A DNA stretch of 64,000 bases from Waddliaceae bacterium (lineage in GTDB: Bacteria > Chlamydiota > Chlamydiia > Chlamydiales > SLFE01), in contig CAVYRW010000004.1 in NCBI GenBank assembly GCA_963771045.1, positions 608,001-672,000 of the forward strand, written 5' to 3'. The notes below the pieces were generated by a model. It was not told the origin of the DNA. It made no database searches and saw only the letters and a program-made list of their open reading frames with translations. Shown one piece after another: positions 38,663-40,877 of this stretch; the stretch's first letter is position 1, and each line of letters begins with the position of its first letter. Both the position numbers and the translations under genes were made by a program.

Positions 38663-40090
38663 TTATCCTTTAACCACAAGATGCGGTTTAAGTCTGGCGA
38701 CCATTTTTGCAAGGCCGGCTTTATCCACAGCCTCAACGACTTGGTCGACATTTTTATAAGCGTCAGGCATTTCTTCGGCAATTGTGCGGTAGGAATTGGC
38801 TTTGACGATGACGCCTTGTCCTTCCATATATTGAATGGGGTCTTTTCCCTTCCAGGATTTCATGGACTTATGGCGGCTTCTCGCTCTCCCTGCGCCGTGG
38901 CAGCAGCTCGACCAGGTGAGGGGGTTGCCAAGTCCGGCGAGAAGGTAGCTGGCGCGCCCCATATCTCCGGGAACAAGGACAGGCTGCCCCGTTTTTTGGA
39001 AGATCGGCGCAAGCTCCGGGTGGCCCGGGCCGAAGGAGCGGGTGGCTCCTTTTCTATGGACGCAAAGCTTTCGTTTTTTTCCGTCGACTTCATAAGTTTC
39101 GAATTTGGCAATGTTGTGGCAGACGTCGTAGATCTGCCGCACCTCTTCGGCAGGGAGGCCTAAAACTTCCGCAAAGCTTCTTCTGACGTAGTGGAGGATT
39201 TGCTGGCGGTTGTTGAACGCATAGTTGGCCGCCGCGGCCATCGCGGCAAAGTAGCGCCTGCCGGCATCGCTGTTTATAGGAGCTGCGACAAGCTGACGGT
39301 CGGGCAGGCCTTTGTCATACCCTAATTTCATAAAGCTGTCCAGGGTATCCTGACAGGTCTGGTGGCCGAAGCCGCGCGATCCGGAGTGGATGAGGATGTA
39401 AATATTTCCCTGCTGAATGTCCCACTCGCTCGCCATCTCATCGGACAGGATTTTTTGCACTTCGCCGATCTCGACGAAGTGATTGCCGGAACCGACGGTG
39501 CCGACCTGCCTGCGTCCGCGATCGCGCGCATGGCTGGAGATGGCGTCAAAGTCAGCTCCTTCGATGACGCCATGGCTTTCGGTATGGTCTAAGTCTTGCG
39601 AAAGGCCGAAGCTGTTTTCTACAGACCATTTGGCTCCTTTTGCAATCAGTTGCTTGTAATCGGCATCGGCTAATCCTTTTTTTTCTTTATGCCCTTTGCC
39701 GATACCTGAGGGGACATGTTTGAAAATCGCTTCGATCAGGTGATTTTTTTGTTTTTCCGTCAGTTCTTTAAAGGGCGCGGAGATGATGGCAAGGCGCACT
39801 CCGCAGTTGATGTCGTAGCCCACACCTCCCGGGCTGATCACTCCTTCTTCGGCGTCCATGGCGGCCACGCCGCCGATGGGAAAGCCATACCCCCAATGAA
39901 TGTCTGGCATGGCAATGCTGTGGCCGACAATGCCCTGAAGCGTTGCGACGTTTCTCACCTGCTCAAGGGGTTTTTCCATTTCAATGTCGCTTAAAAGTTC
40001 TTCAGTGCCGATAACAAGTCCGGGGACTTTCATTCCGCCCTCTTTAGGGAGCAGATACATGCCTTCTTGAAATTTTTCCAGATTAAACAT
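38663..40090 (-). CDS. rtcB: RNA ligase RtcB
   Basis: MPDIHWGYGFPIGGV, DINCG, GNHF, HSGSRG, HN, HRKGAT, HGAGR and AYK motifs. Confidence 0.97.
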   Translation of the reverse strand: MFNLEKFQEGMYLLPKEGGMKVPGLVIGTEELLSDIEMEKPLEQVRNVATLQGIVGHSIAMPDIHWGYGFPIGGVAAMDAEEGVISPGGVGYDINCGVRLAIISAPFKELTEKQKNHLIEAIFKHVPSGIGKGHKEKKGLADADYKQLIAKGAKWSVENSFGLSQDLDHTESHGVIEGADFDAISSHARDRGRRQVGTVGSGNHFVEIGEVQKILSDEMASEWDIQQGNIYILIHSGSRGFGHQTCQDTLDSFMKLGYDKGLPDRQLVAAPINSDAGRRYFAAMAAAANYAFNNRQQILHYVRRSFAEVLGLPAEEVRQIYDVCHNIAKFETYEVDGKKRKLCVHRKGATRSFGPGHPELAPIFQKTGQPVLVPGDMGRASYLLAGLGNPLTWSSCCHGAGRARSRHKSMKSWKGKDPIQYMEGQGVIVKANSYRTIAEEMPDAYKNVDQVVEAVDKAGLAKMVARLKPHLVVKG

Positions 40091-40877
40091 CGACAATCAT
40101 CTCCCATTCCAAGATGTGATTTTTTTGAGCAAGCCTGCCATGGTAGCTCACCGCTTTAAAAGGGACTCCGATTTCCGTATCGGCTGTTGAAACGACTTTG
40201 TTAAGAGACGAGATGATGTCATCTAAGCTGACAGGCAGTTCATTGTTTTTTACGAAGGACAAAATCTCGGGACACTCGAATGCTAGTGCTGTCAGCGCAT
40301 GTTCAAAAATTTCGTTTGTCGAACGCCCTCTGATTCGAAAAGCGATGTCCGCTGTGTGTTCCATTTCCTCATAAGGAGGGAAGAGGGGACTCTCCCACAG
40401 CGATCGATACTCGGAATTCCCCATGCTCTCAAATAGGTGGATATTTGTCAGAGTCACGGGGAGGGGGTGAAAACTGTCCGTCCACTCTTTCGGGTTGAAT
40501 TTTCCTCTCGAAATCGTGATGTGGGGTTTAAAATCCCTCTTCTCGACAGGGTAGCCGTGTTGTTTTATCCATTCGAGCAGCGAACGATGGAAAGCTAAGA
40601 GTTCGTTTTCTCTTTTGCGGAGGTTCACCCGCCAGGCGGCAACACGCGGCTGTTTTTCGGGAAAAAACAGGCATTTGTCTAAAATTCCGGTAAAGCCGAG
40701 GTCGAAAAAAGGTTTGGGAAAATCTTCAAGATTTTCCATAAGTTTTTCAATGCCAACGCTTCCTAAAAAAGCCAGTGTCATGTGGCGGGAAGGCTTGGCG
40801 ATAATTTTCCCTTTAGGGAATTTTTCCGGCCAGGGAGCATGACTTTCCATAGCAAAAAATACACGTTTCTTTTCCAC
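40083..40877 (-). CDS. Fusion of 2H RNA 2',3'-cyclic phosphodiesterase (ThpR/LigT) and archease
   Basis: HMTLAFLG and FKPHITI 2H motifs; C-terminal YEEMEHTADI...KAVSYH...IVDV archease motifs. Confidence 0.88.
   Translation of the reverse strand: MEKKRVFFAMESHAPWPEKFPKGKIIAKPSRHMTLAFLGSVGIEKLMENLEDFPKPFFDLGFTGILDKCLFFPEKQPRVAAWRVNLRKRENELLAFHRSLLEWIKQHGYPVEKRDFKPHITISRGKFNPKEWTDSFHPLPVTLTNIHLFESMGNSEYRSLWESPLFPPYEEMEHTADIAFRIRGRSTNEIFEHALTALAFECPEILSFVKNNELPVSLDDIISSLNKVVSTADTEIGVPFKAVSYHGRLAQKNHILEWEMIVDV

Follow-up and report, generated by a model that had tools for sequence, protein, structure and literature searches.

Why should an enzyme whose expected product RtcB cannot seal be built into the same polypeptide as the activator of that ligase? 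The question is raised by a gene in a 64,000-nucleotide (nt) stretch of DNA from Waddliaceae bacterium (phylum Chlamydiota; assembly GCA_963771045.1, contig CAVYRW010000004.1, positions 608,001 to 672,000 of the forward strand), the whole of which is called the window here and supplies the coordinates below. The gene encodes a fusion of a ThpR-like 2H phosphoesterase with a shortened archease, hereafter mini-archease, and overlaps the start of the RNA ligase gene rtcB. Our data point, with moderate confidence, to a conserved two-gene module for the repair of RNA breaks, in which the mini-archease likely recharges RtcB, while an autonomous cyclic phosphodiesterase (CPDase) activity is predicted for the ThpR-like 2H domain. 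This reading is carried by the conserved linkage of the two genes and by the separate fates of the two halves of the fusion in genomes without an adjacent RtcB.

One reading frame for a 2H domain and a shortened archease

The elements of the module are as follows.

40083 to 40877, minus strand: fusion gene, ThpR-like 2H phosphoesterase plus mini-archease; a single open reading frame (ORF) of 264 amino acids (aa) plus stop, GTG start
40383 to 40877, minus strand: 2H (ThpR/LigT-type) domain, residues 1 to 165; 60.2 bits with TIGR02258, below its cut-off, and fold matches
40767 to 40784, minus strand: 2H motif 1, H32-M-T34-L-A-F37 (HxTxxF), corresponding to ThpR 43-HxTxxF-48 (PMC4201822)
40506 to 40523, minus strand: 2H motif 2, H119-I-T121-I-S-R124 (HxTxxR), corresponding to ThpR 125-HxTxxR-130 (PMC4201822)
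40086 to 40382, minus strand: mini-archease domain, residues 166 to 264, about 35 to 45 residues shorter than free archeases
40347 to 40361, minus strand: archease N-terminal tip motif E173-H174-T-A-D177, corresponding to Pyrococcus horikoshii E8-H9-T-A-D12 in the alignment to 4n2p and 1j5u
40140 to 40157, minus strand: archease motif K241-A-V-S-Y-H246, aligned to KALTYH of TM1083; K241 corresponds to P. horikoshii K117
40101 to 40105, minus strand: Shine-Dalgarno-like GGGAG in codons W258-E259, 10 nt 5' of the rtcB ATG
40083 to 40090, minus strand: 8-nt overlap ATGTTTAA, in which the last codons of the fusion (D263-V264-stop) contain the rtcB start
38663 to 40096, minus strand: rtcB ORF as given in the open-frame listing
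38663 to 40090, minus strand: rtcB from its ATG, 475 aa, apparently of the archaeal/Thermus (archease-dependent) type

An earlier note, made from the letters of the window alone, had described one ORF that carries both 2H motifs (HMTL and HITI), continues into a C-terminal archease (EHTAD, KAVSYH and a final DV-stop) and overlaps the rtcB ATG by 8 nt. This description holds: all the motifs lie where the note had placed them, the overlap is that of 40083 to 40090, and the archease is present in a shortened form. The GTG at 40877 is the likelier start codon because a conserved N-terminus, KR(V/L)FF, precedes the internal ATG; F7 is kept in at least 90% of 124 aligned sequences, and there is no in-frame ATG, GTG or TTG between the upstream TAA (40905 to 40907) and 40877. 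The database protein for the gene (P0001, 255 aa) begins at the internal ATG, residue 10 (window 40851 to 40877, minus strand).

That two genes were wrongly joined by an assembly error or a frameshift is a reading to which we give practically no credence. The same single frame recurs in 182 genomes from many independent assemblies, and the structural model described below is confident over the domain junction. As a check of the fusion in sequence data, which the earlier note had proposed, a 568-nt contig of a relative about 88% identical, from an independent metagenome run, covers 40008 to 40569 without an indel, crossing the domain junction as well as the gene overlap. No RNA data set was listed as carrying the sequence, and no sequencing run matched half or more of the words sampled from it.

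For the 2H half, the best solved sequence match to the profile of the fusion family is Escherichia coli ThpR, aligned over almost its full length (profile positions 4 to 162 against residues 4 to 170 of 177). The fusion scores 31.2 bits with Pfam LigT_PEase (cut-off 23.3) and 26.4 bits with 2_5_RNA_ligase2 (cut-off 27). The two motifs that define ThpR are HxTxxF and HxTxxR, within which H43, T45, H125 and R130 are essential (Remus 2014, PMC4201822). Both are intact in the fusion, as the earlier note had said, and this is true across the 124-sequence alignment: H32, T34, H119 and T/S121 are present in all 124 sequences, R124 in 122 and F37 in 120, the other 4 having Tyr. An AlphaFold model of the fusion built from the same sequences (predicted local distance difference test [pLDDT] 97.1, predicted template modeling score [pTM] 0.92) forms a rigid pair of domains, the first of which (residues 1 to 167) resembles the Deinococcus radiodurans CPDase (5h7f; Z 16.7), P. 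horikoshii PH0099 (1vgj; Z 15.8) and E. coli ThpR (4qak; Z 15.1), with a Foldseek match to 5ldm (E 3.6e-9). These comparisons predict 2',3'-cyclic phosphodiesterase activity for the 2H domain.

The C-terminal half (residues 167/174 to 264 of the model) matches TM1083 (1j5u) with Z 10.3 and a root mean square deviation of 2.6 over 85 of 127 residues, the human archease of the RTCB complex (8odo_B) with Z 8.4 over 94 of 169 residues, and MTH1598 (1jw3) with Z 7.8 over 97 of 140 residues. It is a shortened archease, in which the full two-module SHS2 fold of about 140 residues is not present and the stretch at residues ~60 to 100 of TM1083 is cut to about 13 residues. What is kept is the tip. P. 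horikoshii archease requires H9, D12, K117, D141 and its last residue, whose terminal carboxylate is a metal ligand (Desai 2014, PMC3973293). The corresponding residues of the fusion are H174, D177, K241, D263 and V264, the D263-V264 end matching D141-I142 of P. horikoshii; K241 and D263 were placed through the TM1083 alignment and the structural match rather than through a P. horikoshii alignment. In the 124 sequences these five positions are conserved in 121, 120, 122, 121 and 121 cases, respectively. No mini-archease was found as a free-standing protein, the three short matches all being fragments of the fusion.

Conserved linkage to rtcB

A word-indexed search returned 215 full-length homologues of the fusion protein, and the 120 of these that were listed measure 255 to 290 aa, cover 97 to 100% of the query and belong to Chlamydiae wherever a taxon is named. 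An exhaustive search gave 461 matches at E<=0.001 and, at E<1e-30, 188 clusters (50% identity), far more than chance would produce. Among contigs drawn from one genome per species, 199 stretches held a relative of the fusion, and 80 loci were kept for the analysis of the gene neighborhood, the nearest being 88% identical and labelled Waddliaceae. The earlier note had called for such a neighborhood search. In it, rtcB lies directly downstream of the fusion gene in 77 of the 80 loci, two others end at a contig edge, and one locus (L082) has no rtcB. An identical 8-nt overlap, ATGTNTRR, is found in 76 of the 77 linked loci, while the remaining one (L081) has a 100-nt gap. The pairwise distances of each fusion half correlate with those of RtcB (r about 0.6), which fits coinheritance and is indecisive.

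The overlap leaves its mark on the codons. The 3' end of the fusion gene reads ...TGG GAG ATG ATT GTC GAT GTT TAA, in which GAT provides the rtcB ATG (40090 to 40088), TGG-GAG forms the GGGAG and the stop codon occupies 40085 to 40083. Asp263 is encoded by GAT in all 80 loci, against a background in the same genes of 1628 GAT versus 853 GAC; likewise, GAG is used in 70 of the 74 Glu codons at position 259, against 1342 GAG versus 2408 GAA (36% GAG) in the background. The codons of Ile261, Val262 and Val264 are free to vary across the loci. Since synonymous codons are fixed at the two positions, the overlap is functional, which fits translational coupling.

The ligase itself appears, by sequence, to be of the archease-dependent type. 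The protein matches the whole Pfam RtcB profile (PF01139; 527 bits, positions 1 to 426 of 426), and its nearest solved relatives are the enzymes of Thermus thermophilus (2epg; E 1.5e-139), for which archease is needed for multiple turnover (Desai 2015, PMC4604427), and P. horikoshii (1uc2; E 5e-137). In 52 chlamydial RtcBs, D93, C96, H204, H235, H325 and H398 are invariant; by their spacing they match human D119, C122, H227, H259, H353 and H428, i.e., the metal ligands and the guanylylated His (PMC10944509). In the source genome (90.6% complete), RtcB, archease and 2H enzyme occur once each, the last two in the fusion protein. The translational coupling to RtcB claimed in the earlier note is supported, the ligase being of the archease type, and the absence of rtcA and rtcR, which the note had reported for the neighborhood, extends to this whole genome, where neither RtcA (PF01137) nor RtcR (PF06956) had a match.

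Nothing else belongs to the module as far as the 80 loci go: no third gene is conserved beside the fusion-rtcB pair, the largest cluster of flanking genes occurring in 24 of the 80. In the window, a ROK-family sugar kinase gene lies at 37684 to 38643 (minus strand; Pfam ROK, 5.8e-67), with its probable ATG at 38643, on the strand of rtcB and 19 nt beyond its stop. Only four of the 80 loci (L004 to L007) have this neighbor; the kinase is lineage specific and stands outside the fusion-rtcB module. An EamA-type transporter gene (36994 to 37644, minus strand) follows further downstream of rtcB, and an M42 aminopeptidase gene (41116 to 41985, plus strand; Pfam, 2e-54) is found upstream of the fusion gene in divergent orientation. 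These flanks are ordinary housekeeping genes without sign of a defense island or mobile element. A promoter and terminator scan of 37400 to 41300 gave no more sites than shuffled sequences did. Longer fused forms were absent at E<=1e-5, which is weak evidence; two longer candidates, P0204 (596 aa) and P0253 (775 aa), resemble gene-calling errors or chimeras.

Distribution in Chlamydiota and fate of the two halves without RtcB

In an even sample of 401 Chlamydiota genomes, the fusion was found in 182 of the 400 in which its profile was scored (one was left unscored) and RtcB in 184 of 401. A total of 171 genomes had both, 11 had the fusion without RtcB, and 13 had RtcB without the fusion, the RtcB matches in these 13 being mostly weak. 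Neither gene occurs in genus g6, with genomes of ~1.0 to 1.3 Mb (fusion 0 of 24, RtcB 0 of 25). In the sampled genomes without the fusion there was no match at all to the fusion profile, so no free ThpR was found there.

Genomes that carry the fusion without an adjacent RtcB of 470 to 480 aa show what becomes of each half on its own. There are 14 of them, and the fusion gene was retrieved from 13, G096 being left out since its gene is split over two contigs. The 2H residues (H32, T34, H119, T121 and R124) are complete in 10 of the 13. The archease tip set (H174, D177, K241, D263 and V264), in contrast, is complete in just one (G128) of the 12 genomes tabulated for it, and in G335 the C-terminal half is lost entirely, leaving a frame of 218 aa. 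Four control species from the same genus that do have the adjacent RtcB keep both residue sets in 4 of 4 cases. Loss of the tip need not mean loss of the fold: in a model of the fusion from G108, which has no RtcB, the two-domain architecture is kept (pLDDT 87.8, pTM 0.88; C-terminal blocks 93 to 97), the underlying alignment having 12 rows, two of them from genomes with RtcB.

In three species of genus g13 (G033, G046 and G072) the adjacent 477-aa RtcB is replaced by a shorter one of 411 to 414 aa encoded elsewhere, and the archease tip residues are gone from the fusion proteins; from the sequences, an archease-independent ligase seems to have taken over. The genes of the shorter RtcB are located as follows.

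G033:C1:301424-302554: shorter RtcB, g13 species G033
G046:C1:984277-985407: shorter RtcB, g13 species G046
G072:C16:8277-9407: shorter RtcB, g13 species G072

Because the tip is lost and the 2H motifs are mostly kept where RtcB is missing, the archease half would serve RtcB and the 2H half would have a separate job. The residue patterns accordingly indicate that RtcB is what keeps the tip conserved and that the 2H half, under selection of its own, is more than a mere RtcB accessory.

Possible cooperation of the fusion protein with RtcB

In the module that we propose, the archease half would recharge, i.e., guanylylate, the adjacent RtcB. Its tip (H174, D177, K241, D263 and the free carboxylate of V264) would enter the RtcB active site and supply a metal and phosphate ligand for guanylylation, so that multiple turnover becomes possible, as it does for the T. 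thermophilus and P. horikoshii enzymes. If the C-terminal carboxylate has to be free, this would be the reason why the archease is the C-terminal partner of the fusion, and also why the stop codon, and hence the rtcB ATG, is pinned after Asp-Val. The 2H half would process cyclic-phosphate RNA ends independently, within the same RNA-break pathway. The model also suggests that the 2H domain may be a scaffold for the truncated archease, because the two domains form a rigid whole, the C-terminal fold survives the decay of the tip and no free mini-archease is found.

How ThpR chemistry would fit with RtcB ligation is the more delicate part. The product of ThpR is a 2'-phosphate, which RtcB cannot seal (Remus 2014, PMC4201822), and the chemical paradox pointed out in the earlier note is therefore real as far as ThpR chemistry applies. 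The solution that we tentatively prefer, and the most speculative step of the proposal, is that the 2H half does not feed RtcB and instead opens to 2'-phosphate those cyclic-phosphate ends that RtcB leaves unsealed; a single coupled translation event would then keep healing, activation and sealing in a constant proportion. We think of such sorting rather than of feeding because, in the human complex, the RTCB active site admits either the archease tip or the RNA substrate but not both at once (Gerber et al., PMC10944509). For the same reason, an RNA end is unlikely to be channelled straight from the 2H site into RtcB as long as the tip stays docked. The channelled complex put forward in the earlier note is a conjecture. 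The link to host or toxin RNases that the note had raised finds no support here, no member of the MazF/PemK family having been found in the source genome.

Several observations weigh against the module as we read it. On the side of domain assignment, the fusion stays below the cut-off of TIGR02258 (RNA 2',3'-cyclic phosphodiesterase, NCBIfam; 60.2 bits, cut-off 65.7), and Pfam Archease (PF01951), although it scores 34.9 bits (cut-off 25), matches only residues 169 to 199 with profile positions 1 to 31 of 136; we infer RtcB activation here for an archease that is ~35 to 45 residues short. Among the genomes without RtcB, G295 and G341 have Tyr in place of H32, the first catalytic His, the fusion of G055 is interrupted by an in-frame stop, and that of G035 keeps its 2H residues in a frame without a start codon. 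Conversely, G128 (the source of locus L082), a 99%-complete genome, has an intact fusion including the tip residues and no RtcB was found in it. Moreover, a 2H half that yields 2'-phosphate would take substrate away from RtcB, and the benefit of this is not evident here. Finally, the codon and genome counts given above come from kin genomes and are hence nonindependent.

Some of these genomes have features of their own. G295 and G341 (fusion genes at L095 934 to 1740 and L096 961 to 1749) are reduced genomes of ~1.3 to 1.4 Mb, and G341 also has an Arg-to-Lys change in the second motif; to judge by these substitutions, 2H activity may be decaying too in both. In G128, a 3.3-Mb genome without RtcB, the fusion gene (L082 5001 to 5798, at the same place as L100 3452 to 4255) retains the ATG of the lost rtcB start, and rtcB may have been lost recently by deletion.

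The fusion might, on another account, be no more than a means of stabilizing a truncated archease and coexpressing two enzymes, with the 2H domain engaged in unrelated housekeeping on 2',3'-cyclic nucleotides or in the removal of 2',3'-cyclic phosphate (>p) ends ahead of exonucleases. The failure to find a free-standing mini-archease, the survival of the C-terminal fold after tip decay, the persistence of the 2H half without RtcB and the hydrolysis of 2',3'-cAMP by ThpR in vitro (PMC4201822) would all agree with this. We nevertheless consider it doubtful, given the tight co-occurrence of the two proteins, with RtcB in 171 of the 182 fusion genomes, and the lack of a free ThpR in the sampled Chlamydiota that have no fusion; a purely structural role, besides, would not hold six catalytic residues nearly invariant.

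Other readings would give the 2H domain a direct part in ligation. The tip could tether, or dock, the ThpR domain at the mouth of RtcB, where an RNA end with >p would be held in park or reversibly 2',5'-joined during recharge, and 2',5' bonds reversed to >p and 5'-OH, before the end is handed back for 3',5' sealing. ThpR was indeed originally identified as a reversible 2',5' transesterase acting on broken tRNA, i.e., nicked stem-loops (PMC4201822), the products of the reversal are exactly the substrates of RtcB, the two-domain model is rigid, and the fusion partner of the 2H domain is one that enters the active site of RtcB (PMC10944509). The mutual exclusion of archease and RNA at that site and the conservation of the 2H half in 10 of 13 genomes without adjacent RtcB make this hand-back unlikely, however, as does the statement in Remus 2014 (PMC4201822) that no natural 2',5'-linked bacterial RNA is known. 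Alternatively, the paradox would dissolve if the chlamydial 2H domain opened >p to 3'-phosphate, thereby giving RtcB ready ends and bypassing its GTP-dependent cyclic phosphodiesterase step. The regiochemistry of the 2H superfamily does vary, yeast Usb1 yielding 3'-phosphate, and a family below the TIGR02258 equivalog cut-off is a diverged branch. Yet HxTxxF and HxTxxR, the extended motifs that in ThpR position the 2'-phosphate product (PMC4201822), are fully kept and the closest folds are ThpR-type enzymes, so that we regard this solution as quite improbable.

Our preferred module, with an archease half that likely recharges RtcB and an autonomous 2H half, would matter for several reasons. 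ThpR/LigT enzymes are widespread and their biological role is open, the authors of Remus 2014 offering no more than speculation about it (PMC4201822); through the fusion, such an enzyme is naturally tied to the RtcB pathway across the phylum, although the end chemistries of the two enzymes are expected to oppose each other. As a compact two-protein system with clear point mutants, it could show whether the formation of 2'-phosphate competes with, gates or proofreads RtcB ligation. The minimal archease of about 100 residues, which retains the tip and either does without the remainder or has the 2H domain in its place, helps to delimit the requirements of RtcB activation. A clean example of how an overlapping start codon and ribosome-binding site constrain C-terminal codons is provided by the fixed GAT and GAG. 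Should the unlikely parking and hand-back of RNA ends prove true, the pair would work as a self-contained RNA ligase with proofreading, able to convert cyclic-phosphate nicks and 2',5' bonds to normal ones, and ThpR would gain its first biological role.

Comparison with known systems

Our literature search, whose reach did not include the survey by Burroughs and Aravind 2016, found no paper on a ThpR-archease fusion, and the words "fused" and "fusion" do not occur in Desai 2014 (PMC3973293). In the databases, some JGI product names carry both domains, while NCBI names give the phosphodiesterase only or "hypothetical".

A 2H CPDase covalently joined to an RNA-sealing machinery is also seen in the fungal and plant tRNA ligase Trl1/RNL, which combines ligase, kinase and 2H CPDase (PMC7145591). 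Its ATP-dependent ligase, however, seals 5'-phosphate to 3'-OH ends and requires the 2'-phosphate; the chlamydial RtcB has the opposite end chemistry and cannot use a 2'-phosphate.

The E. coli rtcBA operon with RtcR shares with the chlamydial locus the plan of an RtcB-centered repair unit in which the ligase is accompanied by an enzyme for the 2'/3' end phosphate. RtcA converts 2'- or 3'-phosphate to cyclic ends. The chlamydial 2H enzyme would, on the contrary, open cyclic ends, there is no RtcA or RtcR in the scanned genome, and the E. coli RtcB is of the shorter, archease-independent type, unlike the chlamydial one.

With E. coli ThpR (LigT/YadP; PMC4201822; 4qak, 5ldi) the fusion shares the HxTxxF and HxTxxR motifs, the fold (Z 15.1) and an alignment over its full length. 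It differs in having only ~24% identity, a score under the TIGR02258 cut-off, a C-terminal archease and linkage to rtcB, whereas E. coli ThpR is free-standing and without a known partner or role.

The closest relative of the locus is the "tRNA splicing operon" that archease and rtcB form in prokaryotes such as P. horikoshii and T. thermophilus (PMC3973293, PMC4604427), in which an archease gene likewise lies directly 5' of that for an RtcB of 470 to 480 aa. Shared as well are the tip residues His, Asp, Lys and penultimate Asp with a free C-terminus, and the expected role in guanylylation and multiple turnover. The chlamydial form differs in that its archease is ~35 to 45 residues shorter, turned up nowhere as a free protein and follows a ThpR-like enzyme in one chain, in that the genes overlap by 8 nt with synonymous codons fixed, and in that the host phylum is obligate intracellular and is not known to have tRNA introns. 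The undescribed system that the earlier note had seen here was thus an overstatement: the fusion is a variant of the known archease-rtcB operon.

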